64,000 nucleotides of DNA from positions 480,001-544,000 of the forward strand of contig CBDHDF010000011.1 of NCBI GenBank assembly GCA_965261545.1, in the 5' to 3' direction. The translations under genes and the position numbers were made by a program. This document shows, piece after piece, positions 5,985 to 56,621 of this stretch (its first letter is position 1; the number at the start of each line of letters is the position of its first letter). This DNA comes from Bdellovibrionales bacterium (lineage in GTDB: Bacteria; Bdellovibrionota; Bdellovibrionia; Bdellovibrionales; UBA1609). The notes below the pieces were generated by a model, which saw nothing but the letters and a program-made list of their open reading frames with translations, was not told the origin of the DNA and made no database searches.

Positions 5985-8546
5985 ATGAAAGGAAGTCCAA
6001 TGAAAAAAAACCACATGAAAGGAAATCAGAACTCTATGGATGCCCTCGCAAGTGAGTTGGAATTTTGGCACTTTGATGAAGATATAATGGTTTTTAGGGA
6101 TGGGTCCCTTGGGAGCGGCTTCCAGCTCTCAGGCTTTGATATGACCTGCGCCACCAATGAGCAAATCAATCAAATGACCCAGCACCTTGAAGACCTTATG
6201 GTGGCCTCAGAAGAAGGGCTTAAGTTTCAAGTTCTTTACAAACTCTCCCCTTATGTTGAGAAACTTATTGAGGATCACCGAAAGCTGTCTGAGAAAATAG
6301 AAGGACCTTACCAGAGAGTCGTCCAGGCTCGCCTCGGGTTCTATCGTCAAAACCAGATGGAGAAGAAATACTTTTTCCCTGAGATTTACTTCTTTGTTCG
6401 CAGCCAGCCCTTGGGAACTCAAAAACAGGGGCTTTTTTCTTCAAGCCACCACTTTACCTCTCTCCTAGAAAAAGACTTTGAGCAGGGAAAAAGAAAATTT
6501 ATGCGTTCTCTTCATCAGGTGGAGTCTCACCTTGTTTCCGCAGGGCTAAGCCCCAAGCCTTTGGTCCGTGAAGCTTGGTTCCAGCTTATTTTTGAACACC
6601 TCAATTTCGAGAGGTTTGAACGAAGCCCGGAGGGGCGAAGGGAAAAAGTAGACATTCCCCATTATCGTCCACCTAAAACCCTCTTTGACCCTTCCGTAAG
6701 TGAGCAACTCACTCTCACTGATTTCATATGGGATAAAGATGCTATCTCTATGGGAGGCTATAAATTTCGCACACTCAGTCTTGCCACCCTCCCCGAAGGA
6801 CAAACTTGGGCCTCCATGGCTCATGTTTTTTCCACGCTGCCCTTTCACTTTTGGATAAGTCAGTCCATTCATCTCTTGAACCAGAGGAAAGAAAAAGGCT
6901 CCCTAGAACTCAAGAGAAGAATCGCCTACTCCATGGCTTCGGGAAGTCAGAATGTCAGTGACCTTGATTCAGAGAACAAGTTAGGGCAAATAGAAGGGCT
7001 CTTGTCCCATCTTATTGAAGGTTCAGAGAGATTGGTTTCTTCAGACTTTAATGTGATTATTTGGGCAAAATCTCAAGAAGAGCTTGATGATAAAACCGAC
7101 GAGATTTTTAAAACCTTTCGTTTGCTCAACCAAGCTGAGGGATTGCAAGAGACCTTGGCTGGAAAAACAGCTTTTCTTAAATCTCTTCCAGGATGTTGCG
7201 AGGGACTTCGTCACAAGAAGATGAAGTCCAGTAATGCCGCCCACCTTATGCCGGTCTTTGCCAATTGGCGAGGAAACCCAAGGCCCGTATGTCTCCTTCC
7301 CACAAGAGATGGGGAGCTTTTCTCACTGGACCCCTACGCCGAACACCTTCCCTCATGGAATGGCATTGTTTTTGGCTCCTCAGGAAGTGGCAAGAGTTAC
7401 ACGCTGGTTCAACTTATGGCCATGTTCTATGGAAAGGTCACCCGTAGTCCATCGGGAAAAGTTCATAGGCCAAGAATTGTGTGGATTGACAACGGGGCTT
7501 CATCGAAAAGGCTCATTGAAGTTCTAGATGGTGAATTTGTGGATTTTAGCTTGGAGTCGGATTTGTGCCTTAATGTGTTTGACCTCAAGAAGGGGGAAAC
7601 CCAACCAAGTTCCCATAGAGTTCGCACCATCCTCGCCGTGCTTGAAATGATTCTCAAGGATGAAGATCAAAAAAGTCTTGGCAAGAGGGAGAAGGCTCTT
7701 TTAGAAGAGCAGATTTATAAAGTCTATAAAATTCATAGTGAAGAAGAGCGCGAAGAATATGGAGAAGAGCTAAGAAAATTGCCAACACTGTCTGATTTTA
7801 AATCCCTCTTAGATGGTCATCGTGACCCTAAGATGAGGCGGTTTGGAGAAATCCTCTATAGTTGGACAGGTTCTTCATCTTATGGTCACATGCTTGATGG
7901 TTCCACCAATGTGAAGCTCTCAGAAGACCTTGTCTCTGTGGAAGTTCGCCACTTAAATGACTACCCCGACCTTAAGGATGTCATACTTTTGATTTTAACA
8001 TCTTATATTCAAGATGTGGCTTCGTCGGATATCGAAAGGGAGTATCTTCTGATTATTGACGAAGCAGAAAGACTCTTACAATCAGAGCTAGCAAGGCAGG
8101 TGGTTATCACCTGTTATCGCACTTGGCGAAAATTTAAAAGTGGCATTTGGTGTCTGAGTCAGAATTACAAAGACTTTATGATGGATGACTCCCTTAAAGA
8201 CGCTCTGATGACCAACACCACCAATATTATTATCCTTCCTCAGCGTAAAATTGACTGGAATCATTTCCAGCAAACCTTTGACTTCAATGATGTTCAGGTG
8301 GAGCGAATCAAGAGCTTATCCATATGCAAAGGGGAGTACAGTGAAATGTATTACCTTCAAGGAGATAGGGACACCATTTTACGGTTGACTCCCGAACCCT
8401 TGAGTCATTGGTTTTCCACATCCGATGCCAACCACAAGACTCGCATCTCCCATGTCGAGACTGAGTTTCCAGAGATGAGTCAACTGGATGTTTTGGAGTA
8501 TTTGGCTTTTTCACAACCAGAGGGTGAGGAGGCCAAAGAGCCCTGA
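5985..8546 (+). CDS. virB4: VirB4/TraC-family T4SS ATPase
   Basis: 853 aa; Walker A GSSGSGKS; IVWIDNG; Walker B LIIDEA; RTWRKF..SQN motifs. Confidence 0.9.
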   Translation: MKGSPMKKNHMKGNQNSMDALASELEFWHFDEDIMVFRDGSLGSGFQLSGFDMTCATNEQINQMTQHLEDLMVASEEGLKFQVLYKLSPYVEKLIEDHRKLSEKIEGPYQRVVQARLGFYRQNQMEKKYFFPEIYFFVRSQPLGTQKQGLFSSSHHFTSLLEKDFEQGKRKFMRSLHQVESHLVSAGLSPKPLVREAWFQLIFEHLNFERFERSPEGRREKVDIPHYRPPKTLFDPSVSEQLTLTDFIWDKDAISMGGYKFRTLSLATLPEGQTWASMAHVFSTLPFHFWISQSIHLLNQRKEKGSLELKRRIAYSMASGSQNVSDLDSENKLGQIEGLLSHLIEGSERLVSSDFNVIIWAKSQEELDDKTDEIFKTFRLLNQAEGLQETLAGKTAFLKSLPGCCEGLRHKKMKSSNAAHLMPVFANWRGNPRPVCLLPTRDGELFSLDPYAEHLPSWNGIVFGSSGSGKSYTLVQLMAMFYGKVTRSPSGKVHRPRIVWIDNGASSKRLIEVLDGEFVDFSLESDLCLNVFDLKKGETQPSSHRVRTILAVLEMILKDEDQKSLGKREKALLEEQIYKVYKIHSEEEREEYGEELRKLPTLSDFKSLLDGHRDPKMRRFGEILYSWTGSSSYGHMLDGSTNVKLSEDLVSVEVRHLNDYPDLKDVILLILTSYIQDVASSDIEREYLLIIDEAERLLQSELARQVVITCYRTWRKFKSGIWCLSQNYKDFMMDDSLKDALMTNTTNIIILPQRKIDWNHFQQTFDFNDVQVERIKSLSICKGEYSEMYYLQGDRDTILRLTPEPLSHWFSTSDANHKTRISHVETEFPEMSQLDVLEYLAFSQPEGEEAKEP

Positions 8547-8595: not shown

Positions 8596-9864
8596 TCACT
8601 CTTGCTCCCCATCGATAATGGTCCAGCCCTTTCCCTTTAAGCTTGTACGAGCTGATGCAGCACTGGAGTTATATTTTAATGTGCCCACATTAATTGTATT
8701 ATGTCTTGTTGTAGGTGTGCTTTTGTTGAATTGTATTAGAAATTTTGAATAATTTTCAATGGATAAAGATGAATTTCTAAGGAAACCACTTTGGTTGGAA
8801 ATGTTCGAAAAGTTCCACTTACTTACATCTGGGTTTGCTTGGGTTGCATTGTCAAACATATATTCCATATTTGTGACCTTAGAAATATCCCACTTACTTA
8901 CATCTGGGTTCGCTTGGGTTGCATAATAAAACATATCCTGCATATGTATGACATTGGAAGTATCCCACTCACTTGTATCTGGGTTTGCTTGGGTTGCATC
9001 AAAAAACATAGCTCTCATATCTGTGACCTTGGAAGTATTTCCTCCAAAGACTGTTTTGAGCAAAGAATTGTCTTCAAAAGCATAAGACAAATCTTTCCAT
9101 CCTACATTTCCAAGATCGTTCACCTGAAGTAAACTATCTTTTGAAGAATCCACGTTATTTTGGAATCCCTCACAAAGTCCCATAATTGTGACTGTATACA
9201 CGTTATCGATAAAGTAGGTATGTACCTTATCGGGATCATCAAAAGACGTCACTTCACTGACACCACTGTTATCTCCCCAATCCACAATAAAATCATATTT
9301 TAAATTTGGTTTAAGGGGAAGGGTGAATTTATCTTTACTATCGATAGACCATACTGTTACAAAATGATGGATATCATTGACGACAGCAACACTTTGTGTG
9401 TCCTCTCCATGTGTCACTGTGACCATGATTTCGTCTGATGTTGCTTGGCTCACATCGAAAGCTCCTGTAAAGACATTGGAACTACAAGGCACTTCTACAG
9501 AAGTGATTTGAGGTTCTCCAACAATCACCGACACGTTTCCATTCATATTTGAATCACAGATTCCTTGTATCGTGTAGGACCTTGAATTGGATGAATGAAG
9601 GGAGGCCAATGGTTCATTGATACTTAGTGTGGGGCGCTCACTCGGTATCGGGTTGGAGTTCGACGTGGGAGCCGTGTTTGATGTAGGAGTGGTGCTCGAC
9701 GTGGGAGCCGTGTTCGACGTAGGAGTGGTGCTCGAAGTAGGAGAGGTAACAATACTTTCTTGATTTTGCTTGTCGCTATCGTTCTTCTTGCAACCGATAA
9801 GGATTGTCAAAGATAAGGTGATTAAAATTTCATGGATTGTCTTCATTTTTTTGTTGTTTCTCAT
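8596..9864 (-). CDS. BspA/DUF285 repeat surface lipoprotein with Thr/Pro/Ser linker and PKD-like segment
   Basis: Lipobox LIGC; 18-bp TPTS repeats (~9652-9745); FIVDWGD; 25-aa repeats of the type NPDxSxWDxSxVxxMxxMF. Confidence 0.85.
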   Translation of the reverse strand: MRNNKKMKTIHEILITLSLTILIGCKKNDSDKQNQESIVTSPTSSTTPTSNTAPTSSTTPTSNTAPTSNSNPIPSERPTLSINEPLASLHSSNSRSYTIQGICDSNMNGNVSVIVGEPQITSVEVPCSSNVFTGAFDVSQATSDEIMVTVTHGEDTQSVAVVNDIHHFVTVWSIDSKDKFTLPLKPNLKYDFIVDWGDNSGVSEVTSFDDPDKVHTYFIDNVYTVTIMGLCEGFQNNVDSSKDSLLQVNDLGNVGWKDLSYAFEDNSLLKTVFGGNTSKVTDMRAMFFDATQANPDTSEWDTSNVIHMQDMFYYATQANPDVSKWDISKVTNMEYMFDNATQANPDVSKWNFSNISNQSGFLRNSSLSIENYSKFLIQFNKSTPTTRHNTINVGTLKYNSSAASARTSLKGKGWTIIDGEQE

Positions 9865-26025: not shown

Positions 26026-27954
26026 TTGCACATGGCTAGAAAAAGAATGAGTCATAGGGAAATGAAAAAACTTGTTTTTAAAGTTGTTGATGACTGTAAA
26101 AGACTTGCTGACAATCATGTTAAAAACTGGAAGCCCACCAATAAGAGTTGGTCCACCATTGAGGGAGCCGTGTATCTGAGACTTTCCGACAATGCCCAAG
26201 TGGCTGTGGAAAGGGGTTCTCTGGAACAACAAATTCACATTGCCGTCTCAGAAGCCCAATATCGTTCGGAACAGGAAAAGATCAACTACAAGATCAGCGA
26301 GTTTTATATTGAACCCGGAGTCACAGGAACCCATGACAATCGGCCCGAGTTTATAAGGTTGCAGCAGAATATTCTCCTTAAGACCCATCAATTTATTATC
26401 TTCAAGGAAATTTCCCGACTGGTGCGAGACCTGGAAATCTGGAAGCGATTTTTCAAGCTCTGCCAAAACCATGATTGTGAAATTTGTCTGCGTGGCCTTC
26501 CATTTAATCCCAATGATCCGGCTTCCATTTTGCAGTTAGATCAACTGGCGGCCTATGCTGAGTTTGAATCACGCACCACTTCCAAGCGCATCAGAGAAAG
26601 CAATCATTCCGCCCTTATCACTTCTGGGAAATTCAATGGAGATTACCCTTTGCTTGGTTTTGACCTTGTGACCAATGAACACGGGGAGGGAACGGGGGTT
26701 TACAAACCCAACCCCAAGGAACTCAAGCAAGTGGAGTGGGTCATGACTTCTTTTCTTCAGGTGGATAAGTATGGAACCCTTCTCAATATATGCAAAGAAC
26801 AAGGTATTCAAAACAAGCACGGAAAACCCTTGAGTCGAAATAGCCTCAAGGCTCTGCTTACCAACCCTCGCTATGTGGGCAAGTGGTATCGCAACCCCCA
26901 TAGTAAGGATAAAAGGCAAGACAAGCTTATGCCCTACGACCGTTATATGGAGGTGAGTTTTGATTATGGCTGTGTCATCAATGAGAGGCTTTGGAGCCAA
27001 GTGCAAGAGAAGGTGCGCAGCATGGACCAGTCACGGGCCAAGGGAGTGAAAAGGTGCTACCCTCTTTCGGGGCTTCTTTTTTTAGAGGATGGTACCCATT
27101 TTATAGGGACTGGTGCCTGGGGGCGTCAATACAAGGCCACTTATTATTACAATGTCTCCCACAAGCTTCGAATACCCACAAAGATTTTTGAGAAGGAAGC
27201 TGAGAAAATGTTATGTCATGTCAAAAATCACTCCAAGGAGTTCCAAGGGGCTCTTGTGAAGCTTACCCAAAAAAAGGATAGCACTTTGGAGAGGATCAAG
27301 GATAAGATGCAAAACATTGAAGAGCAGTTTAAGAAACTTGCCACCCAAAGGGAGCAGCTCGATAAGCGGCTGAACTTCCTCTTGGCGGATGATAGCCATG
27401 GTCGTGGAGGCGGTGGAAGTGAAGGCGATAGTGGTAGTGGTGGCAGTGACGGCTGTAGTAATAGTGGCAGCAGTGGCAATGATGGTAGTCACGGCAATGG
27501 AGACCCTAGCAGTGATGGCCGTGGTGGTAGTGATAGTAGTGATCGCACTACTGGCAATGATGAAAATATGGAAATGGCTCTCGCCTTCAAAGGCGAATAC
27601 AAAAAACAATTTGTGAAGCTAAGAGACCAAGAGCAAGAACTCAACCATCAGAGAGAGAAGATGCGACGGATCCAAGCTCAATTCACAACACCTCTCCCCC
27701 AAAAAGAAGAAGAAAGGCAGAAGTTGGTGAATGACGCTCTCCAGCATGTCCAGAAAAAGGACCTTGTCGCCCTGAGAGCCATTTATCGAAAATTTTTTGA
27801 GAAGATCATCGTAAAACCCTTGGATAGCTCCAGGGTTCAACTGCAATTTGTCTTCAAAGACTCGTCCTCGACCCTTTTTCGCAGGGTTGAGGACGCATTC
27901 TGCATATCGGTTGGAATGGTGGAGGCAACAGGGATCGAACCTGCGACCTCTTGA
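26026..27954 (+). CDS. Large serine recombinase (ICE integrase)
   Basis: YLRLS catalytic Ser; SLEQQ; RPEF; SRLVRD; AEFESRTTSKR; LTNPRYVG; coiled coil. Confidence 0.92.
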   Translation: MHMARKRMSHREMKKLVFKVVDDCKRLADNHVKNWKPTNKSWSTIEGAVYLRLSDNAQVAVERGSLEQQIHIAVSEAQYRSEQEKINYKISEFYIEPGVTGTHDNRPEFIRLQQNILLKTHQFIIFKEISRLVRDLEIWKRFFKLCQNHDCEICLRGLPFNPNDPASILQLDQLAAYAEFESRTTSKRIRESNHSALITSGKFNGDYPLLGFDLVTNEHGEGTGVYKPNPKELKQVEWVMTSFLQVDKYGTLLNICKEQGIQNKHGKPLSRNSLKALLTNPRYVGKWYRNPHSKDKRQDKLMPYDRYMEVSFDYGCVINERLWSQVQEKVRSMDQSRAKGVKRCYPLSGLLFLEDGTHFIGTGAWGRQYKATYYYNVSHKLRIPTKIFEKEAEKMLCHVKNHSKEFQGALVKLTQKKDSTLERIKDKMQNIEEQFKKLATQREQLDKRLNFLLADDSHGRGGGGSEGDSGSGGSDGCSNSGSSGNDGSHGNGDPSSDGRGGSDSSDRTTGNDENMEMALAFKGEYKKQFVKLRDQEQELNHQREKMRRIQAQFTTPLPQKEEERQKLVNDALQHVQKKDLVALRAIYRKFFEKIIVKPLDSSRVQLQFVFKDSSSTLFRRVEDAFCISVGMVEATGIEPATS

Positions 27955-27992
27955 ATGCAAATCAAGTGCTCTACCAACTGAGCTATGCCCCC
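27917..27992 (-). tRNA. tRNA-Ala(UGC), 76 nt, CCA encoded
   Basis: GGGGGCATAGCTCAGTTGGTAGAGCACTTGATTTGCATTCAAGAGGTCGCAGGTTCGATCCCTGTTGCCTCCACCA; G3:U70 pair; anticodon TGC. Confidence 0.97.
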
Positions 27993-35996: not shown

Positions 35997-37885
35997 GAGC
36001 CTGTAAACTATTTTGTGTAACTGCCGAATCATATTAGGATGAACTATCATCCTGAAAGGAGAAGGCAGAATGGATATCAAGACAATAGGCAAGGAACTAG
36101 CGAAGAACGTCAAGACCCAAAAGGATTTATCCGACATAACGGGTCAACTGATGAAGGTTGTTTTAGAGACGGCCCTTAATGCGGAAATGGACGATCACCT
36201 AGGTTATGAGAGGCATGAGAAGTCTGAGACCCGCAAATCCAACACTCGCAATGGTTACAGTAGAAAGACCATAAAGGGAGAGAAAGGCGAGGTGGAGCTT
36301 CAGGTCCCCCGTGACCGAAGTGCCTCCTTTGAACCTCAAGTCATTCCCAAGGGTAAGACTCGTCTTGAGGGCTTTGAAGACAGTATCCTGACCCTCTATG
36401 CGAGGGGAATGACGACCAGGGATATTCAAGGAGCTATCAAAGACCTCTACCATGGTGCAGAGATATCCCACTCAGTGATAGCCAACGTGACGGATGCTGT
36501 TATTGATGAAGTTACGGCTTGGCAGAACCGCCCCTTGGATAGCACTTACCCTATCGTATTTTTGGACTGTATCGTGGTGAAGGTCCATCAAGACAAGAGA
36601 GTTATTAATAAGGCGATTTACCTAGCTCTTGGTATTACAGAGGAGGGTCAGAAAGACTTGTTGGGCCTATGGATTTCTGAAAATGAGGGTTCAAAGTTTT
36701 GGTTGAGTGTTTTGACTGAGCTGCAAAATCGAGGGTTGAAAGATGTATTTATATTTTCTGTAGATGGTCTTACAGGTTTTCCTCAAGCCATTTCAGCGGC
36801 TTTTCCCAAGTCTAAAGTGCAACTGTGCATTGTCCATATGGTCCGCAATTCCCTTCGCTATGTTCCTTCCAAGGATATGAAAGCTGTCGCCCAAGACCTC
36901 AAGTCCATTTATGGCTCTACGACTCTGACAGAAGCTGAAAAGGCCCTTGAGGAATTTTGTACCAAGTGGTCTTCAAAGTATCCTAATATTGAAAAGTCTT
37001 GGCGTAGGAATTGGGACAATCTCATCACTATTTTCGATTATCCGGATGAAATCAGAAAGATTTTTTATACCACAAACGCCATAGAGTCGTTAAATAGCGT
37101 GATCCGCAAGGCGATCAGAAATCGTAAGATATTTCCCAGTGATCGGTCGGCTTTAAAAGTTGTATATTTAGCGATAAAAATGGCCTCTAAGCGATGGACA
37201 CGACCATTACACAACTGGAAGCCAGCCATGAACAGGTTTGCCATTGAATACGGTGACCGTTTTGACAACTAAGTTTTTTAATAAGGTCCACCACCTGCCT
37301 TATAAGGGGGCTTAAAAGCCCCTCTAAGGCGTTGACAGAAGTACTGGAATACCGAGACTATGGTTAGGGTAATATAGTATGGGAACCTAAATACATGCCC
37401 TCTTGGTGCAGATTTGGGTTTCCATTTTTTTTCATATTTCATCCCAATTCTGGTATTTCTCGAATATCCTAAGTTAAAAAAAATAAAAAAAAGGGGGTAA
37501 TATAGTATGGGAACCTAAACACATGAACCCTTTGATGAGATTGGAATTTCCATTTTTTTGAGAGAGCCATTGCTGATTTTTTTTCAACCAAGATGATAAT
37601 TATTTATTTGAGTTCTTTCCAGTTCTGATATGATCCCATTACGGCTCCATAATACAATCAAAAGTCCAGAGTAACTAAAGAGGCCAATTATATAGACCAG
37701 CGAAGATGTCCACCTCCCCATTAACTTATAATGCATTGTGACTGACAAAATCGCTTGAAGGAAAAAATGTCAATTATACATTGACGAATAATATGGGACT
37801 GTGCTTTTTACCAGGAGTGGAGCCACATAAGTGGCTTTAAGATTTAAGAAAAAAATTGCAGTTACACAATTATTTTTACAGTCCC
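35997..37885 (+). mobile_element. IS256-family element, intact copy 1
   Basis: IRs GAGCCTGTAAACTATTTTGTGTAACTGC / GGGACTGTAAAAATAATTGTGTAACTGC; 8-bp TSD ATGAGAGA. Confidence 0.95.
36070..37272 (+). CDS. IS256 (Mutator) transposase
   Basis: RNGY, VPRDR, FLDC, VDGLTGF, QLCIVHMVRN, YTTNAIESLN. Confidence 0.96.
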   Translation: MDIKTIGKELAKNVKTQKDLSDITGQLMKVVLETALNAEMDDHLGYERHEKSETRKSNTRNGYSRKTIKGEKGEVELQVPRDRSASFEPQVIPKGKTRLEGFEDSILTLYARGMTTRDIQGAIKDLYHGAEISHSVIANVTDAVIDEVTAWQNRPLDSTYPIVFLDCIVVKVHQDKRVINKAIYLALGITEEGQKDLLGLWISENEGSKFWLSVLTELQNRGLKDVFIFSVDGLTGFPQAISAAFPKSKVQLCIVHMVRNSLRYVPSKDMKAVAQDLKSIYGSTTLTEAEKALEEFCTKWSSKYPNIEKSWRRNWDNLITIFDYPDEIRKIFYTTNAIESLNSVIRKAIRNRKIFPSDRSALKVVYLAIKMASKRWTRPLHNWKPAMNRFAIEYGDRFDN

Positions 37886-40800
37886 ATGAGAGAATGAACT
37901 CGACTTCTCCTTCCATTAATATCATGCTTGAATGAGAAAAATACTTTCTCAATGATATCTTTGTTTCGATATAAACTCAATATATTTGTTTTCTTTAAAT
38001 CATGACTATTTGTAATTAATATCATAATACCCAGCGTAGAAGATTCTTCATTAATATTTTCTTCATTTAAAGAAATCTTAAATGGAGTGCAATCAGAGAT
38101 ATTGAGAAACCTTTTTTTATTTCCTAAAGTTTCTTTCATATAGGAACTAGCTTGTTCTTCTGATTTCAAATCTTTCTCAAGAAAGAGTTTCATAAAATCA
38201 AGCAACTCTTTCATTAACACAGATTCCTCATAAACCCTTCTTTCTTTGTCTAAGAAAATATGAGCCGTACAATCAAATCCTCCGATTTTTATTGATTCTT
38301 TGCAATGCGAATAAATTTCCTCATTAAAAGTAAAAGAGCATGATGGAGATTTTATTTTCTCATTTAAAGCCACAGCAAGCTCTCTTGAGAGTTTTGTTCT
38401 AAAACTCATGGGTATCAAATACTTCAATTCCTTACGATGCAGTCCCTTAATATTTTCTACACTAGAAAAACCCTTATCCATAACTAAACAATCTAAATCT
38501 AATTTATAACTTGTTATGATCTCAATAATATTCGATAAAGTTTTGACATCCGGTATACTTCCAGGATAGATTCTGTACGCTATAGGCGTATGAGTTTTAT
38601 TGTCTTCAGATTTCCTACTTATCAGACCTAAGTTTATTTGTTCGAGATTCTCTCCATCTCTGTTGTAACCTTTCTCTAAAAATTCATTATTCATAGAGTA
38701 GGAAGAAAAGGATGTGATGTCAAACATTACCGTACCAGAACCCTTCACTTGATTTATCCATTCGCTAAAGAAAGATTCTATCTTTTTTTGATCTCTCCCA
38801 AGATCACATAAGAGATTGCTTATTTTTTGTGACGACATAAAATTTTTCTTTGAAACATAAGCTTCTTGACACCACATATCGTAAAGATAAAAGGGCTCTC
38901 TTTTGATTATTTTAAAAAAAGCTAAATGCAAATAATGTTCGTAATTATCTGGATAAATTTTAGACAATGTTTTTAGAAGATTTAGTTGTTCGCATATTTT
39001 CTCTAAGAAAAATAAGGCTCCCACATTATAGGAGCCTATGGGAATCTTTTTTCTTTTGGTCTTAATTTGACCTGTAAACTCATCCTTTCTTCCAAGGTAG
39101 ATGCGTTTTTGCCTGGCCTGCTTTTTTTCCTTGTCCCAAAAGCTTTCAACTTTATAGACATAGGTTTTTCCCTTATTTTTTTGCTCAAAAGTGTATGACA
39201 TCGTTAATATTGTAACTATGCTTTTGAAGAGATGACAATCTCTTAATCAAAGTGAAGGCCTTCTCAGACAATAATCAGGACTTAAGTCCTACACCTAGTT
39301 ACAACTTTTAGGGATTTCAGGATGCTATCCATTATGAAATCAAGAATCAGTTTAAAGTTAGGTTTTTTGTAGTCATTTTTTACCAACTGATTCACACTGT
39401 CTTCATCCTCATTTATGCTCATTTGAATCTTTGTATAATTGAAGAGCCAAAAATAAGAATACAGCTCTTGCAATATTCCATTAAGGCTTGTTGAGTGCCA
39501 CTGCTCCATTTTCATTGTCGATGTAAAATCACGAAATGTCGTTTCTATTTCCCAACGACGAGAGTAAAGAGCAACCATATCCTTCTTGTCCAAGGAGCCA
39601 TGCGGAAGATTAGTGGCCAAAACAGAGAACTCCCCAGTCTTTGGGTTTTTATACTTATAGAGATGAATGACCACCCCCTCAATAACCATTTGTGAATACC
39701 AACCTGGGCCATTAAATAAATTTACGATGGGGATAAAAGTAGAGCCTCGCTTACAACGCGCAATAAAGAAGTTACTGGCTTGAGCATGGGCCTTAATAAT
39801 CTCTGTAGATAAATAAAGCCTATCGTAGAGAGTTATGCTATTACTCTCAAAACTACCTATCATTTGAATAGCATTGGCGATTTCGTTGAGAGCGGGAGAA
39901 TAGCAAAGATTCTTTGTCACACCCGATAAAACGTCATAAGCATGAGATAGATACATACGTAAGAAATGAGTTTCCATCTCATTTGGGCAAGGGTACCCAC
40001 AATAACCCTCCTTTAAAAGATCTTTAGAGCGAGGAAGTGCTAATTGGTCGCCATCTATGGCATAGATATAAAAGCCATGAAACGTTTTTCTCAATGGTTC
40101 GTAGTCTGTAATCAGAGATTCAAAGATATTTTTAAAAAATAGGTAAGAAATACTTTGACGTATCTTGCTGAGACTGCTTTTGACTGGCATGAGAAGCAGG
40201 TCACCAAAATGAGTCCATACCGTCTTAAGAGCGATTTGGTAGCCTTCGTAATTTGTTCCGGAAATAAGATAGATAATAGTAAAAAAGAAAATTTGAGGAT
40301 TAAATTTTCGATTCCTTTTTTGTTTTTCTGGATCGACAAGGTGCTCTGGCTTGAAGGAAGAATCAAGTTTTGGTAGAATAAAATGGTCATCTGTGACGCG
40401 AACTCGTCATTTGGGGGCTTTCGAGATCAATATTGGATTGCATGTGACTTACTCCTTGGTTGAGGGTTGGGTGTAAAGAGCCTGTAAACTATTTTGTGTA
40501 ACTGCCGAATCATATTAGGATGAACTATCATCCTGAAAGGAGAAGGCAAAATGGATATCAAGACAATGTGTGCCACGAAGTCACGGAGGTGACATGCTGA
40601 TGTGAAGATGGAGGTAGGTCCTCCGCACTCGGATTTCAGGATTTGAGTGCAAACAACCTTGCTGCTGCATGGGAGGCAAGGCCCTTGTAGTGAGCGAGCA
40701 AGGAAAAGGCCGTAGTAAACGGTCATGTAAGTACTAGGGAGATGAGCGAAAGCAAACCCACCGACGACGCATCGAAAGATTAACAGTCGCGTCAAAACCG

Positions 40801-41250
40801 AAGGAAGGTTGTCTCCGTCGGGATAAGTCTAGAGGAAGCCTGATGACCGATCTAGACGGCGTGCGGTGTATAGGGGGCATGAACCTAGTACAGGCTTCGT
40901 ATCGGAACGTGGGAACCTGCTGGTGGATGATAAGGGAAACGCTATAAGGGAGACCCCCGAAGTGCTAAATACCGATGCCACCAACCAGGGGCAGAGTGAT
41001 TCGTAGTAGTGATGAAGTTCTTGTAATGAGAATGGAGCGAAGGGGTCACATGATTTATGGAAGTAGTCAGGCCACATAGGTGTTCGTGGTTTTTTTCTAA
41101 TTTTAATTCCGAATTAATGGAAATACTTTTCAAGCCTCCTTTTTTACATAGAGGGAAGTGGGCGATTTATAAATATTTATAGATGGTATTTTGAGAAATG
41201 GACGCAGATTGACATTTGATATCCACGACAAGCCATGTGTTTTAAGAGAC

Positions 41251-41714
41251 TTAATTGTGTAACGAAAGAACTGTGGACTTTTGGGAACAACAGAATTTAA
41301 ATTTCTTTCCACTTCCGCATGGACAGGATTGATTTCTTTCAATTTTTTCGCTTTGGTCATTTTTCTGCTGTGATGCCGACATATCTTCAGTTACAATTTT
41401 TTTTTCTTTTCATCTTCCAAATCCTCATGCAAATTATCAAAAAGAATATCTCCTAGATTCTGGTGAAAGTAACGATTTTTAAATTGAGATATGAGCATCA
41501 TAAAAATACATGTAAGAACCAAAAGTGTGAGTGAAGCAAAAAACAAATAAGATGCTTGCATCTGAGTTAATGGGAGGATGAGTGCCAGTAAATAACCAAA
41601 TCCAAATACCAATAAGGAAATAAAAAGAGATATAAAGGATCCCAAAGAAAGTAATATTAAAAGTCCAAAAATCATTGCTATTTTTTGCTCCTGTCGAATA
41701 CAATGAATCCGCAT
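41251..41714 (-). pseudogene. Passenger membrane protein with C-terminal SEC-C motif, frameshifted
   Basis: One base shorter than copy 2 in the poly-T tract near 41405, which disconnects GRNQSCPCGSGKKFKFCC. Confidence 0.75.
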
Positions 41715-42915
41715 AGATACAAGTGAGTTATCTACAGACTTAATGATTCTCGCGTTAGTATCTTAATAGGTCAAGATTAATTGGAGGAAATTTTTATTTT
41801 TTAAACGCAGGGGGCAAATATGAGCACGGAAGCTCAAACACTTAAAACGATCAAAAAATGTTTCAAGAAAGTTATTCCTGAAAAGGACTCTCGGGCAACC
41901 ATTCCACCTCTTGAGTTTATTGTGGCTCTTGTCTTGTCATTCCAGGGAGACTCTAAGACATATTCAATAGAGGGGATTAGGAGGTTTATGATAAGTCATT
42001 TAGGGTTAAGAATTGAAAGACACAGCTTCTGGGAAAGACTCTCTAGAAAAAGATTAAAAAAGCTTCTGAGTAAACTGGTTGAAATGCTCATGATAAAGCT
42101 ATCTCATGGAGCTTTTCATGGGAGCAAAGCCATATTATTACAACTGGGAGTCTCAGACGTTCTTCTTGTTGACTCAAGCACAATAAGCCTTTGGGATGGA
42201 GCATCTGAGAATTTTCCAGGGACAAGAACAAACGCAGGAATTAAATGGCACGCTTGTTTCAGTTTATTCAGTGGTATAATGACTTGGTTCGAATTAACTC
42301 CGTCTTCCACTAACGATAGGAAGTGCTTTCCTGATATAAAGGAACTCGTTGGAAAATTAGTCATCTTTGATTTGGGATATTGGGACTATGGCTTATTGTC
42401 ATCTATTCATGAAGCTAAAGGATTTTTCTTGTCTAGAGTGAAGTCAAATGCCTCTATTCTTATTGATGCTGTTGTTGAAGGTTTGCCAGATTACTATGTT
42501 GGAAAAGAGTTCTCTGATATTAAACTCAAGAAAAAAAACGATGTTGTTGAATTTATAGGCAGTGTCTTGTCCAATGGTAAATGGGTAAGTTTGAGAATTG
42601 TAGGCTTCTGGAATTCCTCCGAAAAACGCTATCATTGGTATTGCACGAATTTAGATGTGGCAGCGGAGTCCATATATCCAATTTATCGTTTACGTTGGCA
42701 ATGTGAACTTATTTTCAAATCTTGTAAGAATTCTTTGAATGCAAATCAGATCACCTCAAACGATCAAAATATCATAGAGAGTCTTCTTCTTGCTTCATTA
42801 GCGGCTCACCTCACATCAAGTGTTGTTTTGAGGATAGGAAGAACTAAACTCAATAAGGAACAAAATGACTCCACATCGTTTCAAAGAGTTGCTAAGGTTA
42901 CCGTCTTATTAGCCT

Positions 42916-44814
42916 CCTGAAATCCCTAAAAGTTGTAACTAGGTGTAGGACTTAAGTCCTGATTATTGTCTGAGAAGGCCTTCACTTTGATTAAGAGATT
43001 GTCATCTCTTCAAAAGCATAGTTACAATATTAACGATGTCATACACTTTTGAGCAAAAAAATAAGGGAAAAACCTATGTCTATAAAGTTGAAAGCTTTTG
43101 GGACAAGGAAAAAAAGCAGGCCAGGCAAAAACGCATCTACCTTGGAAGAAAGGATGAGTTTACAGGTCAAATTAAGACCAAAAGAAAAAAGATTCCCATA
43201 GGCTCCTATAATGTGGGAGCCTTATTTTTCTTAGAGAAAATATGCGAACAACTAAATCTTCTAAAAACATTGTCTAAAATTTATCCAGATAATTACGAAC
43301 ATTATTTGCATTTAGCTTTTTTTAAAATAATCAAAAGAGAGCCCTTTTATCTTTACGATATGTGGTGTCAAGAAGCTTATGTTTCAAAGAAAAATTTTAT
43401 GTCGTCACAAAAAATAAGCAATCTCTTATGTGATCTTGGGAGAGATCAAAAAAAGATAGAATCTTTCTTTAGCGAATGGATAAATCAAGTGAAGGGTTCT
43501 GGTACGGTAATGTTTGACATCACATCCTTTTCTTCCTACTCTATGAATAATGAATTTTTAGAGAAAGGTTACAACAGAGATGGAGAGAATCTCGAACAAA
43601 TAAACTTAGGTCTGATAAGTAGGAAATCTGAAGACAATAAAACTCATACGCCTATAGCGTACAGAATCTATCCTGGAAGTATACCGGATGTCAAAACTTT
43701 ATCGAATATTATTGAGATCATAACAAGTTATAAATTAGATTTAGATTGTTTAGTTATGGATAAGGGTTTTTCTAGTGTAGAAAATATTAAGGGACTGCAT
43801 CGTAAGGAATTGAAGTATTTGATACCCATGAGTTTTAGAACAAAACTCTCAAGAGAGCTTGCTGTGGCTTTAAATGAGAAAATAAAATCTCCATCATGCT
43901 CTTTTACTTTTAATGAGGAAATTTATTCGCATTGCAAAGAATCAATAAAAATCGGAGGATTTGATTGTACGGCTCATATTTTCTTAGACAAAGAAAGAAG
44001 GGTTTATGAGGAATCTGTGTTAATGAAAGAGTTGCTTGATTTTATGAAACTCTTTCTTGAGAAAGATTTGAAATCAGAAGAACAAGCTAGTTCCTATATG
44101 AAAGAAACTTTAGGAAATAAAAAAAGGTTTCTCAATATCTCTGATTGCACTCCATTTAAGATTTCTTTAAATGAAGAAAATATTAATGAAGAATCTTCTA
44201 CGCTGGGTATTATGATATTAATTACAAATAGTCATGATTTAAAGAAAACAAATATATTGAGTTTATATCGAAACAAAGATATCATTGAGAAAGTATTTTT
44301 CTCATTCAAGCATGATATTAATGGAAGGAGAAGTCGAGTTCATTCTCTCATGAATATGAGGGGAAGCATCTTTATTAATTTTCTCTCTTGAATTTTAATT
44401 TCACATATTGATACTGTTATGAAAGATAAGAAGTTATATAAAAAAATGTCTAAAATAGAAATTTACAAAATGATGGACCGATTAAAATTTTATGAATTAG
44501 CTACAGGTGATCTGATGCTTGGAGAGCTGTCTAAAAAACAAAAGGATATTTTTTCAGCCTTCCAAATAGATGGGCTTCCCAAGACAAAATGATGTTTTTT
44601 ATCTGTTTCAAATGTGACGGTGGCTGTGGCTACCACTATGCCTCATCTATCCAATGGGGACGAAGAGGACCTTTCGCAGCAAATTCTTATGAATCATATT
44701 AAATATATTAATACTATTAAACCTCTCAAACCGTTGACAGCAGCCAATTCCATAGGAAGAGAGGAAAGTTAACGCAATACATTAAACCTAGTTACAACTT
44801 TTAGGGATTTCAGG
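42916..44814 (+). mobile_element. IS1634-family element copy 2
   Basis: 29-bp TIRs; 6-bp TSD TAGCCT. Confidence 0.93.
43036..44592 (+). pseudogene. IS1634 transposase with a nonsense codon
   Basis: TTA in the other copies is TGA at 44389-44391; the frame continues to 44592. Motifs FDITS, GYNRDG, DKGF, IEKVF. Confidence 0.85.
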
Positions 44815-45125
44815 TAGCCTCTGATTTTATCAAATATCTCCTAAGCTCATCTCAAAAGTATTTAAATATTTTGATAGAGAAGATCAAGATATTCTCCCAT
44901 GAAATTTATGACACAAACTACCGACGGCGAAAAACATCAATGAATATGGCTAAAAAGGTCTTGCTATGAAAGAATTAAAAACCACGAACACCTATGAGTC
45001 AGGCCAACTTGGTTATGCTGAGGAGGAGCCTAATGAAACGGAAAATCATAGGAGCCGTGTGAGGGGAGACTTTCAAGCACGGTTCTGTGAGGGGCAGTGG
45101 GGGAAGTTCCCACTGCCTACTCGAT

Positions 45126-45747
45126 GTGTGCCACGAAGTCACGGAGGTGACATGCTGATGTGAAGATGGAGGTAGGTCCTCCGCACTCGGATTTCAGGAT
45201 TTGAGTGCAAACAACCTTGCTGCTGCATGGGAGGCAAGGCCCTTGTAGTGAGCGAGCAAGGAAAAGGCCGTAGTAAACGGTCATGTAAGTACTAGGGAGA
45301 TGAGCGAAAGCAAACCCACCGACGACGCATCGAAAGATTAACAGTCGCGTCAAAACCGAAGGAAGGTTGTCTCCGTCGGGATAAGTCTAGAGGAAGCCTG
45401 ATGACCGATCTAGACGGCGTGCGGTGTATAGGGGGAACCTAGTACAGGCTTCGTATCGGAACGTGGGAACCTGCTGGTGGATGATAAGGGAAACGCTATA
45501 AGGGAGACCCCCGAAGTGCTAAATACCGATGCCACCAACCAGGGGCAGAGTGATTCGTAGTAGTGATGAAGTTCTTGTAATGAGAATGGAGCGAAGGGGT
45601 CACATGATTTATGGAAGTAGTCAGGCCAACTTGGTTATGCTGAGGAGGAGCCTAATGAAACGGAAAATCATAGGAGCCGTGTGAGGGGAGACTTTCAAGC
45701 ACGGTTCTGTGAGGGGCAGTGGGGGAAGTTCCCACTGCCTACTCGAT
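45126..45747 (+). ncRNA. ORF-less group IIB intron copy 2 (622 nt)
   Basis: Starts GTGTG immediately after copy 1; ends ACTCGAT before exon AGGCAAG; lacks 4 nt relative to copy 1 near 45435. Confidence 0.92.
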
Positions 45748-46031
45748 AGGCAAGGAACTAGCGAAGAACGTCAAGACCCAAAAGGATTTATCCGACATAA
45801 CGGGTCAACTGATGAAGGTTGTTTTAGAGACAGCTCTTAATGCGGAAATGGACGATCACCTAGGTTATGAGAGGCATGAGAAGTCTGAGACCCGCAAATC
45901 CAACACTCGCAATGGTTACAGTAGAAAGACCATAAAGGGAGAGAAAGGCGAGGTGGAGCTTCAGGTCCCCCGTGACCGAAGTGCCTCCTTTGAGCCCCAA
46001 GTCATTCCCAAGGGTAAGACTCGTCTTGAGG

Positions 46032-47448
46032 CAATGCCGTTTCCTTAAGCCACCACACCCCTCTGCCTCTGCGTTAAGCTATTTCTTTTAAAAGAACTCC
46101 CAGCCCTTTTGATAGACCTTTCATAGCTTCTTTTGAAGTGCCTCCTCTTCTCCATTGAAATCTTCATCAGCAACTTTATCTGCTTCCTAAATTTCTGATA
46201 GAGCCCCGCAACAAAAAGAGGGATGCTATCCATTATGAAATCAAGAATCAGTTTAAAGTTAGGTTTTTTGTAGTCATTTTTTACCAACTGATTCACACTG
46301 TCTTCATCCTCATTTATGCTCATTTGAATCTTTGTATAATTGAAGAGCCAAAAATAAGAATACAGCTCTTGCAATATTCCATTAAGGCTTGTTGAGTGCC
46401 ACTGCTCCATTTTCATTGTCGATGTAAAATCACGAAATGTCGTTTCTATTTCCCAACGACGAGAGTAAAGAGCAACCATATCCTTCTTGTCCAAGGAGCC
46501 ATGCGGAAGATTAGTGGCCAAAACAGAGAACTCCCCAGTCTTTGGGTTTTTATACTTATAGAGATGAATGACCACCCCCTCAATAACCATTCGTGAATAC
46601 CAACCTGGGCCATTAAATAAATTTACAATGGGGATAAAAGTAGAGCCTCGCTTACAACGCGCAATAAAGAAGTTACTGGCTTGAGCATGGGCCTTAATAA
46701 TCTCTGTAGATAAATAAAGCCTATCGTAGAGAGTTATGCTATTACTCTCAAAACTACCTATCATTTGAATAGCATTGGCGATTTCGTTCAGAGCGGGAGA
46801 ATAGCAAAGATTCTTTGTCACACCCGATAAAACGTCATAAGCATGAGATAGATACATACGTAAGAAATGAGTTTCCATCTCATTTGGGCAAGGGTACCCA
46901 CAATAACCCTCCTTTAAAAGATCTTTAGAGCGAGGAAGTGCTAATTGGTCGCCATCTATGGCATAGATATAAAAACCATGAAACGTTTTTCTCAATGGTT
47001 CGTAGTCTGTAATCAAAGATTCAAAGATATCTTTGAAAAATAGGTAAGAAATACTTTGACGTATCTTGCTGAGACTGCTTTTGACTGGCATGAGAAGCAG
47101 GTCACCAAAATGAGTCCATACCGTCTTAAGAGCGATTTGGTAGCCTTCGTAATTTGTTCCGGAAATAAGATAGATAATGGTAAAAAAGAAAATTTGAGGA
47201 TTAAATTTTCGATTCCTTTTTTGTTTTTCTGGATCGACAAGGTGCTCTGACTTGAAGGAAGAATCAAGTTTTGGTAGAATAAAATGGTCATCTGTGACGC
47301 GAACTCGTCATTTGGGGGCTTTCGAGATCAATATTGGATTGCATGTGACTTACTCCTTGGTTGAGGGTTGGGTGTAAAATAAAACAAGTCTTATTCTTGT
47401 CGATTTATCTAATAATTTCAAGAGATTTTTCTTAAGGAAACGGCATTG
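46032..47448 (-). mobile_element. IS4-family element A, full-length copy (1417 bp)
   Basis: 18-bp perfect TIR CAATGCCGTTTCCTTAAG; 10-bp TSD CGTCTTGAGG. Confidence 0.95.
46045..47091 (-). CDS. IS4-family DDE transposase (frame stays open upstream to ~47305)
   Basis: AIDG, YDRLY and YSRRWEIETTFR (IS4 YREK-type motif). Confidence 0.9.
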   Translation of the reverse strand: MPVKSSLSKIRQSISYLFFKDIFESLITDYEPLRKTFHGFYIYAIDGDQLALPRSKDLLKEGYCGYPCPNEMETHFLRMYLSHAYDVLSGVTKNLCYSPALNEIANAIQMIGSFESNSITLYDRLYLSTEIIKAHAQASNFFIARCKRGSTFIPIVNLFNGPGWYSRMVIEGVVIHLYKYKNPKTGEFSVLATNLPHGSLDKKDMVALYSRRWEIETTFRDFTSTMKMEQWHSTSLNGILQELYSYFWLFNYTKIQMSINEDEDSVNQLVKNDYKKPNFKLILDFIMDSIPLFVAGLYQKFRKQIKLLMKISMEKRRHFKRSYERSIKRAGSSFKRNSLTQRQRGVVA

Positions 47449-49061
47449 CGTCTTGAGGGCTTTGAAGACAGTATCCTGACCCTCTATGCGAGGGGAATGA
47501 CGACCAGGGATATTCAAGGAGCTATCAAAGACCTCTACCATGGTGCAGAGATATCCCACTCAGTGATAGCCAACGTGACGGATGCTGTTATTGATGAAGT
47601 TACGGCTTGGCAGAACCGCCCCTTGGATAGCACTTACCCTATCGTATTTTTGGACTGTATCGTGGTGAAGGTCCATCAAGACAAGAGAGTTATTAATAAG
47701 GCGATTTACCTAGCTCTTGGTATTACAGAGGAGGGTCAGAAAGACTTGTTGGGCCTATGGATTTCTGAAAATGAGGGTTCAAAGTTTTGGTTGAGTGTTT
47801 TGACTGAGCTGCAAAATCGAGGGTTGAAAGACGTATTTATATTTTCTGTAGATGGTCTTACAGGTTTTCCTCAAGCCATTTCAGCGGCTTTTCCCAAGTC
47901 TAAAGTACAACTGTGCATTGTCCATATGGTCCGCAATTCCCTTCGCTATGTCCCTTCCAAGGATATGAAAGCTGTCGCCCAAGACCTCAAGTCCATTTAT
48001 GGCTCTACGACTCTGACAGAAGCTGAAAAGGCCCTTGAGGAATTTTGTACCAAGTGGTCTTCAAAGTATCCGAATATTGAAAAGTCTTGGCGTAGGAATT
48101 GGGACAATCTCATCACTATTTTCGATTATCCGGATGAAATCAGAAAGATTTTTTATACCACAAACGCCATAGAGTCGTTAAATAGCGTGATCCGCAAGGC
48201 GATCAGAAATCGTAAGATATTTCCCAGTGATCGGTCGGCTTTAAAAGTTGTATATTTAGCGATAAAAATGGCCTCTAAGCGATGGACACGACCATTACAC
48301 AACTGGAAGCCAGCCATGAACAGGTTTGCCATTGAATACGGTGACCGTTTTGACAACTAAGTTTTTTAATAAGGTCCACCACCTGCCTTATAAGGGGGCT
48401 TAAAAGCCCCTCTAAGGCGTTGACAGAAGTACTGGAATACCGAGACTATGGTTAGGGTAATATAGTATGGGAACCTAAATACATGCCCTCTTGGTGCAGA
48501 TTTGGGTTCCCATTTTTTTTCATATTTCATCCCAATTCTGGTATTTCTCGAATATCCTAAGTTAAAAAAAATAAAAAAAAGGGGGTAATATAGTATGGGA
48601 ACCTAAACACATGAACCCTTTGATGAGATTGGAATTTCCATTTTTTTGAGAGAGCCATTGCTGATTTTTTTTCAACCAAGATGATAATTATTTATTTGAG
48701 TTCTTTCCAGTTCTGATATGATCCCATTACGGCTCCATAATACAATCAAAAGTCCAGAGTAACTAAAGAGGCCAATTATATAGACCAGCGAAGATGTCCA
48801 CCTCCCCATTAACTTATAATGCATTGTGACTGACAAAATCGCTTGAAGGAAAAAATGTCAATTATACATTGACGAATAATATGGGACTGTGCTTTTTACC
48901 AGGAGTGGAGCCACATAAGTGGCTTTAAGATTTAAGAAAAAAATTGCAGTTACACAATTATTTTTACAGTCCCGGTGTAAAATAAAACAAGTCTTATTCT
49001 TGTCGATTTATCTAATAATTTCAAGAGATTTTTCTTAAGGAAACGGCATTGACCCTTAACC

Positions 49062-54733: not shown

Positions 54734-56621
54734 GAGCCTGTAAACTATTTTGTGTAACTGCCGAATCATATTAGGATGAACTATCATCCTGAAAGGAGAA
54801 GGCAGAATGGATATCAAGACAATAGGCAAGGAACTAGCGAAGAACGTCAAGACCCAAAAGGATTTATCCGACATAACGGGTCAACTGATGAAGGTTGTTT
54901 TAGAGACGGCCCTTAATGCGGAAATGGACGATCACCTAGGTTATGAGAGGCATGAGAAGTCTGAGACCCGCAAATCCAACACTCGCAATGGTTACAGTAG
55001 AAAGACCATAAAGGGAGAGAAAGGCGAGGTGGAGCTTCAGGTCCCCCGTGACCGAAGTGCCTCCTTTGAACCTCAAGTCATTCCCAAGGGTAAGACTCGT
55101 CTTGAGGGCTTTGAAGACAGTATCCTGACCCTCTATGCGAGGGGAATGACGACCAGGGATATTCAAGGAGCTATCAAAGACCTCTACCATGGTGCAGAGA
55201 TATCCCACTCAGTGATAGCCAACGTGACGGATGCTGTTATTGATGAAGTTACGGCTTGGCAGAACCGCCCCTTGGATAGCACTTACCCTATCGTATTTTT
55301 GGACTGTATCGTGGTGAAGGTCCATCAAGACAAGAGAGTTATTAATAAGGCGATTTACCTAGCTCTTGGTATTACAGAGGAGGGTCAGAAAGACTTGTTG
55401 GGCCTATGGATTTCTGAAAATGAGGGTTCAAAGTTTTGGTTGAGTGTTTTGACTGAGCTGCAAAATCGAGGGTTGAAAGATGTATTTATATTTTCTGTAG
55501 ATGGTCTTACAGGTTTTCCTCAAGCCATTTCAGCGGCTTTTCCCAAGTCTAAAGTGCAACTGTGCATTGTCCATATGGTCCGCAATTCCCTTCGCTATGT
55601 TCCTTCCAAGGATATGAAAGCTGTCGCCCAAGACCTCAAGTCCATTTATGGCTCTACGACTCTGACAGAAGCTGAAAAGGCCCTTGAGGAATTTTGTACC
55701 AAGTGGTCTTCAAAGTATCCTAATATTGAAAAGTCTTGGCGTAGGAATTGGGACAATCTCATCACTATTTTCGATTATCCGGATGAAATCAGAAAGATTT
55801 TTTATACCACAAACGCCATAGAGTCGTTAAATAGCGTGATCCGCAAGGCGATCAGAAATCGTAAGATATTTCCCAGTGATCGGTCGGCTTTAAAAGTTGT
55901 ATATTTAGCGATAAAAATGGCCTCTAAGCGATGGACACGACCATTACACAACTGGAAGCCAGCCATGAACAGGTTTGCCATTGAATACGGTGACCGTTTT
56001 GACAACTAAGTTTTTTAATAAGGTCCACCACCTGCCTTATAAGGGGGCTTAAAAGCCCCTCTAAGGCGTTGACAGAAGTACTGGAATACCGAGACTATGG
56101 TTAGGGTAATATAGTATGGGAACCTAAATACATGCCCTCTTGGTGCAGATTTGGGTTTCCATTTTTTTTCATATTTCATCCCAATTCTGGTATTTCTCGA
56201 ATATCCTAAGTTAAAAAAAATAAAAAAAAGGGGGTAATATAGTATGGGAACCTAAACACATGAACCCTTTGATGAGATTGGAATTTCCATTTTTTTGAGA
56301 GAGCCATTGCTGATTTTTTTTCAACCAAGATGATAATTATTTATTTGAGTTCTTTCCAGTTCTGATATGATCCCATTACGGCTCCATAATACAATCAAAA
56401 GTCCAGAGTAACTAAAGAGGCCATTATATAGACCAGCGAAGATGTCCACCTCCCCATTAACTTATAATGCATTGTGACTGACAAAATCGCTTGAAGGAAA
56501 AAATGTCAATTATACATTGACGAATAATATGGGACTGTGCTTTTTACCAGGAGTGGAGCCACATAAGTGGCTTTAAGATTTAAGAAAAAAATTGCAGTTA
56601 CACAATTATTTTTACAGTCCC
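54734..56621 (+). mobile_element. IS256 intact copy 3
   Basis: IRs as in copy 1; 8-bp TSD GAAATAAA. Confidence 0.95.
54807..56009 (+). CDS. IS256 transposase
   Basis: Protein identical to 36070..37272. Confidence 0.96.
   Translation: MDIKTIGKELAKNVKTQKDLSDITGQLMKVVLETALNAEMDDHLGYERHEKSETRKSNTRNGYSRKTIKGEKGEVELQVPRDRSASFEPQVIPKGKTRLEGFEDSILTLYARGMTTRDIQGAIKDLYHGAEISHSVIANVTDAVIDEVTAWQNRPLDSTYPIVFLDCIVVKVHQDKRVINKAIYLALGITEEGQKDLLGLWISENEGSKFWLSVLTELQNRGLKDVFIFSVDGLTGFPQAISAAFPKSKVQLCIVHMVRNSLRYVPSKDMKAVAQDLKSIYGSTTLTEAEKALEEFCTKWSSKYPNIEKSWRRNWDNLITIFDYPDEIRKIFYTTNAIESLNSVIRKAIRNRKIFPSDRSALKVVYLAIKMASKRWTRPLHNWKPAMNRFAIEYGDRFDN

Follow-up and report, generated by a model that had tools for sequence, protein, structure and literature searches.

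Two head-to-tail ORF-less introns in an IS256 transposase gene

A stretch of 64,000 nucleotides (nt) from a Bdellovibrionales bacterium (assembly GCA_965261545.1, contig CBDHDF010000011.1, positions 480,001 to 544,000; hereafter, the window) contains two copies of a group II intron devoid of an open reading frame (ORF). The copies lie head to tail at codon 6 of the transposase gene of an IS256-family insertion sequence (IS), with the intron-intron junction at 45125/45126. An earlier note, made from the letters of the sequence, had placed the outer boundaries at 40568 and 45747; both are confirmed, as is the junction between the copies. Domain I and domain V/VI are each found twice by the Rfam models, the former (RF01999) at 88.5 bits against a cut-off of 36 and the latter (RF00029) at 66 bits against a cut-off of 40. 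As that note had also said, the IS256 exons rejoin seamlessly around the pair, with zero target duplication. Its statement that removal of both introns restores the exact transposase holds at the join, but the host element differs from the two empty IS256 copies of the window at 5 of the 374 positions compared, and the gene is interrupted again downstream by an IS4-family element. These differences are shared with an empty copy elsewhere in the assembly (C2:377335-378738). Both empty target sites named in the note, 36086/36087 and 54823/54824, are real.

The two copies abut and neither splits the other, which excludes a nested twintron. Copy 1 measures 4558 nt; its first 507 and last 129 bases are identical to the 626-nt reference unit, and the 10-bp overlap between these two parts is the target duplication of an IS4-family element. 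The earlier description of an ORF-less pair with a domain IV of about 70 nt fits copy 2 and the junctions, whereas domain IV of copy 1 holds a 3922-bp IS4 element with an IS1634 element inside. Copy 2 has a private 4-nt deletion (unit positions 310-313), which takes out the 3' strand of a 3-bp domain I helix (columns 220-222/361-363) paired in all 11 aligned sequences.

Classification of the intron RNA

The intron ends, GTGTG...GAT, fit the GUGYG start and AY end of group II introns, and the RNA can be folded with a domain V carrying the catalytic triad and a domain VI with a bulged A, as expected of this group. The 626-nt RNA folds better than 20 of 20 shuffled sequences (z -4.2), and an alignment of 11 ribozymes yields 124 consensus pairs, 85 of them with changes on both sides, which supports the fold of domains I to III. 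Read from stop to stop in six frames, the 626-nt unit has no ORF of more than 87 codons, and all that its domain IV retains is an ATG stub and a motif resembling a Shine-Dalgarno sequence.

The RNA core is 58-68% identical to those of eight outside introns. The closest database introns reach 66-71% over domains I-III, and the complete ones encode reverse transcriptases (RTs) of 419-433 residues. One outside intron (L024) has an RT 72% identical to the 419-amino-acid RT of a multi-copy Sinorhizobium meliloti intron, and in another (L021) the class D motif of PMC4615759 was recognized by eye. On these sequence comparisons the RNA, here called family A, is classified as a subgroup IIB, class D-like ribozyme and an ORF-less derivative. 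By protein, it falls outside class D, which is defined by the encoded RT, family A having no ORF. In the RNA tree, the grouping of families A and B (see below) is weakly supported (0.20), and the tree was used for identities alone.

Introns of subgroup IIC lack an exon-binding site 2 (EBS2), have a short domain V with a CGC triad and insert after terminators. Subgroup IIC (class C) was rejected for family A, since EBS2 is present and covaries, domain V starts with AGC and the main target is a transposase codon. In a comparison bearing on the bias of class D introns toward the lagging-strand template, 7 of 10 occupied and 35 of 59 empty sites lie on the G-rich sense strand (p = 0.73), the GC skew being patchy. 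On a Methylomonas plasmid (CP157007.1, L023:1942-2599), a further class D-like intron, about 660 nt long, also seems to be ORF-less, and its EBS3 matches its IBS3 (IBS, intron-binding site).

Distribution of family A and related introns in the genome

The assembly comprises 4.3 Mb in 11 contigs and is 96.8% complete. The first 25 bases of the family A intron occur 17 times in it and the last 25 bases 16 times, so that the further ORF-less copies for which the earlier note suggested searching do exist. Eight copies of 626 nt are identical, and copy 1 of the window is identical to them except for its insert; because of this identity, we consider the spread of the family to be recent. IS256 sites with the exact 15-base 5' exon number 67, of which 8 are occupied by the intron and 59 are empty. 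Two further IS256 loci have the 3' junction only, and seven 5' ends, apart from both tandem junctions, have flanks other than IS256.

A second tandem was found at C2:405046-406297, made of two intact, identical copies, with a small insert in its 3' exon. Its host IS256 has the reference haplotype; the host in the window carries nine differences from that haplotype and is the same as an empty copy on C2. Because the host haplotypes differ, the two tandems arose independently, barring gene conversion.

A second ORF-less class D-like intron, family B, is 647 nt long, 71% identical to family A and has seven 5' ends (e.g., C2:47262-47908, L030). It has its own targets and its own EBS1, EBS2 and EBS3, and its domain IV is without the Shine-Dalgarno/ATG stub. 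Two of its copies are located in an IS1634 terminal repeat. The element at C2:463512-464144 combines a 5' half of family B with a 3' half of family A and is probably a recombination product, because its flanks derive from different sites. Another intron, of 2161 nt and encoding an RT, has an EBS1 loop able to base-pair with the sequence at which class D-like introns end. It is found immediately behind the class D intron at C11:346167/346168 (L001/L003), lies antisense within a family B copy (C10:509088-511248) and has a variant 3' end on an IS256 3' exon (C2:263415), as if inserted behind a family A copy.

Recognition of the target site

As proposed in the earlier note, the EBS1 of family A (GUUGUC) pairs with the IBS1 GACAAT of the IS256 exon, in 6 of 6 positions. 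EBS2 (GAUU) was located by covariation with family B and with a variant copy, C2:291100. A second candidate for EBS2, UGAUGU near the 5' end, could pair with IBS2 and was rejected, as it lies in a conserved stem. EBS3 was fixed by covariation: it forms a Watson-Crick pair with the base following the intron (+1) in all six outside introns with an Rfam-defined 3' end, three of the nine (L025, L028 and L029) having been dropped for want of a defined end. In family B, EBS3 is A and the +1 base is T at 6 of 6 ends. In family A, EBS3 is U, and the +1 base at 16 ends is A in 11, G in three and C in two. The three G ends are the two tandems and one ordinary site, C11:779199.

Two decayed, ORF-less copies of family A have been retargeted. 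Variant C2:291100 pairs with its own EBS1 and EBS2 in 6/6 and 4/4 positions (4/6 and 3/4 with the standard ones), and variant C2:494623 pairs in 6/6 with its own EBS1 (5/6 with the standard one). These compensatory changes support mobility in the ORF-less state and are the best sign that the RNA itself may have guided insertion. Like ORF-less introns mobilized in trans of the TeI3 type, family A occurs in several copies at different sites whose IBS match its EBS. Taken together, the copies, the EBS/IBS covariation and the alignment agree with the earlier proposal of a class D-like IIB element that is non-autonomous and mobile in trans.

Formation of the tandem

We favor, with a probability of roughly 80%, an origin in which the second copy was inserted directly before the first by pairing of EBS3 (U) with the first G of the resident intron, an ORF-less class D-type RNA having retrohomed in trans. 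The 626-nt IIB intron of class D ribozyme type would spread by retrohoming, relying on an RT supplied in trans, and its RNA would locate codon 6 of the abundant IS256 transposase via EBS1 (GUUGUC), the short EBS2 (GAUU) and EBS3 (U). After a first insertion, IBS1 and IBS2 would stay in the 5' exon, and the first base of the intron, G, could act as IBS3 through a U:G wobble. A second intron RNA would then reverse-splice into the exon/intron junction, giving the order exon, new copy, old copy, exon. This would have happened at least twice in the genome, with the window locus decaying afterwards. Copy 1 is then probably the later arrival and copy 2 the first, the order and the RNA route both being inferred.

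The pairing scores agree with the suggestion of the earlier note that the intron re-homed at its own 5' junction, for which there is laboratory precedent in the accounts of PMC4615759 and PMC12584367. After insertion, the 5' junction offers 6/6 pairs at EBS1, 3/4 at EBS2 and the wobble at EBS3, while the 3' junction offers 4/6 and 2/4; as the 5' junction pairs better, a new copy is expected upstream. Pairing of 6/6 with at least 3/4 is reached by only 0.3% of 200,000 random sites. These same scores make it extremely unlikely that the second copy entered directly behind the first, with the last bases of the intron serving as IBS1, even though another intron family in this genome does insert behind a class D intron (C11:346167/346168).

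Tandems account for two of the eight occupied sites among the 67 of IS256. Family B, whose EBS3 (A) cannot pair with G, has no tandem at any of its seven 5' ends, a small sample, and a genome-wide motif scan for self-tandem junctions returned none in family B or in the RT-bearing families. The scan also speaks against an origin at the DNA level, by recombination of a circular intron cDNA into a resident copy or by slippage or unequal exchange. Group II intron circles are described in the literature, and a single crossover with a precise circle would produce an identical junction. Recombination between intron copies does occur in this genome, as in the A/B chimera, and both copies of the C2 tandem are identical. 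However, the intron ends share only 2 nt of microhomology (AT), yet both tandem junctions are exact, and the two copies in the window differ; we regard such an origin as improbable.

The assembly is very repeat-rich, and one or both tandems, and the 4-nt deletion as well, could be artefacts of it: the genome is full of identical IS copies, the intron ends coincide with repeat edges and the C2 pair is a perfect duplicate. Nevertheless, drawing a 3'-to-5' junction should need reads that contain it, the copies of the window pair can be told apart, one of them having unique IS junctions, and the two tandem loci lie in different IS256 haplotypes. Public data were consulted as well. In favor of insertion of the intron into IS256, one run has a contig with a single 626-nt copy between IS256 exons, and three runs have the empty junction. 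Among the pieces listed from four runs, all of them contigs, none spans 45125/45126, and the contigs aligned to copy 2 carry the four bases missing from it. These contigs merge repeat copies and 97 pieces fall outside the listing, so the tandem and the deletion are neither confirmed nor refuted by them. On balance, an artefact seems very unlikely.

Several observations weigh against insertion through the U:G wobble. On the RNA side, EBS2 matches the IS256 site in only 3 of 4 positions, EBS1 pairing falls to 4/6 at one family A site, and at two 3' ends the +1 base is a C that stays unpaired. In addition, the wobble was absent from selections with RmInt1 (class D), where the EBS3-IBS3 pairs were Watson-Crick only (PMC4075523). 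The proportion of re-hit loci, two of 10, is the rate expected from plain occupancy (P = 0.44) and indicates no special preference for the junction. Moreover, the order of the copies is based on a single private deletion, and the assembly has no intact class D RT.

Structure of the locus and prospects for splicing

The features of the locus are given in Table 1.

Table 1. Features of the tandem intron locus and of the empty IS256 copies (positions in the window)
Feature	Position	Strand	Details
Intact empty IS256	35997..37400	+	Target site 36086/36087
IS256 left end and 5' exon	40478..40567	+	ATG 40551; IBS2 40556-40559; IBS1 40562-40567; IS256 family assigned via NF033543 on an empty copy
Intron copy 1	40568..45125	+	626-nt ORF-less unit; domain IV interrupted by nested IS elements
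Parts of intron copy 1	EBS2 40778-40781; EBS1 40808-40813; EBS3 (U) 40871; domains V-VI 45050-45125	+	
IS4-family element in domain IV of copy 1	41075..44996	+	3922 bp; 10-bp duplication 41065-41074 / 44997-45006
IS4 transposase ORF in copy 1	41820-42920	+	Interrupted by the inner IS1634
IS1634-family element within IS4	42916..44814	+	6-bp duplication 42910-42915 / 44815-44820; ORF 43036-44391
Terminator-like hairpin in IS1634	43200-43222		
Intron copy 2	45126..45747	+	622 nt; 4-nt deletion after 45434; EBS1 45366-45371; EBS3 (U) 45429; domains V-VI 45672-45747
IS256 transposase 3' exon, first part	45748..46031	+	IBS3 = A at 45748
Second, different high-copy IS4-family element, cutting the IS256 transposase	46032..47448	-	10-bp duplication 46022-46031 / 47449-47458
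Remainder of the IS256 element	47449..48488	+	
Intact empty IS256	54734..56137	+	Target site 54823/54824

In such a pair, copy 1 would have to splice first, because copy 2 is without a good IBS1 until copy 1 leaves; the alternative would be skipping to the distal 3' site. The earlier note had envisaged a pair able to splice sequentially, and the window does not support this, since copy 1 has two IS in domain IV, copy 2 is missing one strand of a conserved helix and the 3' exon is itself interrupted. Both copies look damaged, and the locus is probably decayed. By analogy with class D introns as described in PMC4615759, the IS elements of copy 1 would lie beside the RT-binding stem of domain IV, and the deletion in a conserved helix suggests loss of function of copy 2, provided that it is not an assembly error. 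Terminators show no excess in the insert region of copy 1 (4 predicted, against a shuffle mean of 4.0). Splicing alone would also not yield a whole protein, because the second IS4 element breaks the transposase again. Judging by its two intact copies, the C2 tandem would be the better case for sequential splicing.

The surroundings (33700-64000) form a dense nested cluster of IS256, IS4, IS1634, IS3-like and IS21 pieces next to conjugation-type genes, among them a VirB4/TraC-like ORF (5985-8546), and a serine recombinase gene (26026-27954) that overlaps a tRNA (27920-27992). Together these are probably an integrated conjugative region that serves as a sink for IS elements. The window also has a gene for a PARCEL-repeat surface protein with 75-nt repeats (8596-9864, minus strand). 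Long flanking duplications are known for the IS1634 family. The 1911-bp IS1634 of this genome (C2:237195-239105, L041, and others) has flanking duplications of 37-409 bp at 16 of 22 checked copies, of 8 bp at one and none at five, and in two family A introns a portion of the intron has been duplicated by it.

Candidate helper reverse transcriptases

As the earlier note had said, the window has no RT gene: none was found by Pfam in 29 of its 101 listed ORFs, and none of the 30 RVT_1 (RT-domain) matches of the genome falls inside it. A cognate RT-encoding intron, which the note had implied, did not turn up, the genome search yielding only a distant class D intron at three broken loci. At one, the class D-like RT is cut at the 5' side and frameshifted; at another, a recombinase element interrupts it and there is a stop codon as well; the third is a fragment. 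Excision of the recombinase element alone was rejected as a means of restoring the RT at C11:870506-873720, as the second half of the RT also has a stop codon. The RNA core of this resident intron is 60% identical to family A and 56% to family B. As some outside introns are more similar to A (67-68%), the resident class D intron is not its parent. The other three RT families of the genome have full-length frames of 435, 463 (twice) and 495 (four times) codons, 30-41% identical to class D RTs.

No closely related RT-encoding intron was found in the assembly, which, at 96.8% completeness, does not prove absence. Searches for a cognate RT parent elsewhere gave one 41-nt match in 60 relatives, none in 108 genomes of the family and partial matches in 6 of 400 genomes of the phylum, of which the longest extends over 450 nt at 68% identity. 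From pattern scans came 0, 2 and 1 loci, with longer matches of 67-74%, and the best long matches in 258 plasmid records were 66-71% identical. Nor did the best 120 of 7536 matches (8000 candidates scored) include an intact counterpart of the resident class D enzyme, the next best being 76%.

We consider the helper most likely to have been a class D enzyme that is now broken, lost or not assembled. In our judgement, which was not computed, there is an even chance that it belonged to a cognate intron that has been lost or is missing from the assembly; the class D enzyme of this genome, prior to its breakage, is a less probable but serious candidate, an RT of another class is unlikely, and any other source is more unlikely still.

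In addition, an element of 1925 bp, bounded by short terminal inverted repeats and carrying a single frame of 544 codons for a large serine recombinase (CcrB/XisF-like, below cut-offs), is present at C11:871163-873087 (L042) and in at least 10 other copies (e.g., C10:177075-178998, C6:252661-254584 and C10:793059-794983). Of the 20 ends found, 17 abut RT coding sequence of four group II intron families, and in three of these families they do so at the PQG...SP motif. These positions suggest that it is a site-specific parasite of such genes; our literature search retrieved no paper on serine-recombinase elements in intron RT genes. A tentative and rather doubtful joint reading is that families A and B are orphans that spread recently, with no cognate parent, via the RT of a distant intron (the resident class D one or one of another class), like SINE RNAs with a general driver, while the recombinase element in the RT genes of four families would knock out the supply of helper or, if it excises, gate it.

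Comparison with known systems

The movement of ORF-less introns in trans is established in the accounts consulted (PMC2882425, PMC2504315, PMC4424553), and the review among them describes bacterial ORF-less introns as nearly always co-residing with related RT introns (PMC4424553). TeI3 of Thermosynechococcus elongatus, as described in PMC2882425, resembles family A in having lost its ORF naturally, in its numerous copies, in forming families whose EBS have changed and in moving with an RT supplied in trans. It differs in being derived from the co-resident TeI4, with a very similar RNA and working helpers, and in forming nested twintrons rather than tandems, whereas the resident RT intron nearest to family A is broken, and its RNA core has about 60% identity. 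An absent helper makes RT promiscuity testable.

Among the introns reported to form tandems, RmInt2 of S. meliloti (class D, IIB) shares with family A a class D-type ribozyme, an IS target, EBS3 = U, a tolerated EBS2 mismatch and a head-to-tail product, which its authors ascribed to pairing of this U with the first G of the intron (PMC4615759). Unlike family A, it encodes an RT, targets the inverted repeats of ISRm17 and gave its tandem in a plasmid assay; family A is ORF-less, targets IS256 coding sequence and forms chromosomal tandems. For EcKTE56.groEL (IIB1), the cited account gives 5'-junction tandems via an EBS3(U)-IBS3(G) wobble, commoner in the ORF-deleted form (22.4%) than in the full intron (4.2%) (PMC12584367); however, it belongs to another lineage, has a single groEL target and was studied with an engineered ORF deletion under laboratory induction. 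Retargeted RmInt1 also inserts in tandem via EBS3 pairing with the first intron G, but its EBS3 is C (Watson-Crick) and engineered, and wobble pairs were not selected (PMC4075523).

Tandem formation mediated by EBS3 has been published for three introns, and the locus is largely a natural example of known behavior. Our literature search retrieved no report of ORF-less introns in tandem in a natural genome, supplements, which may list cases, being outside that search. An occupied site that remains a target implies that the intron need not exhaust its sites, and the intact C2 pair is a ready substrate for asking whether tandem introns splice sequentially or leave as a single lariat spanning both copies, between the outermost 5' and 3' splice sites. 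New here are the absence of a cognate helper from the assembly, the covariation support for EBS3 within one genome and the two independent natural tandems. The U:G route, known from plasmid and induction assays, would accordingly leave its products in a natural chromosome as well, twice, and with a naturally ORF-less RNA.

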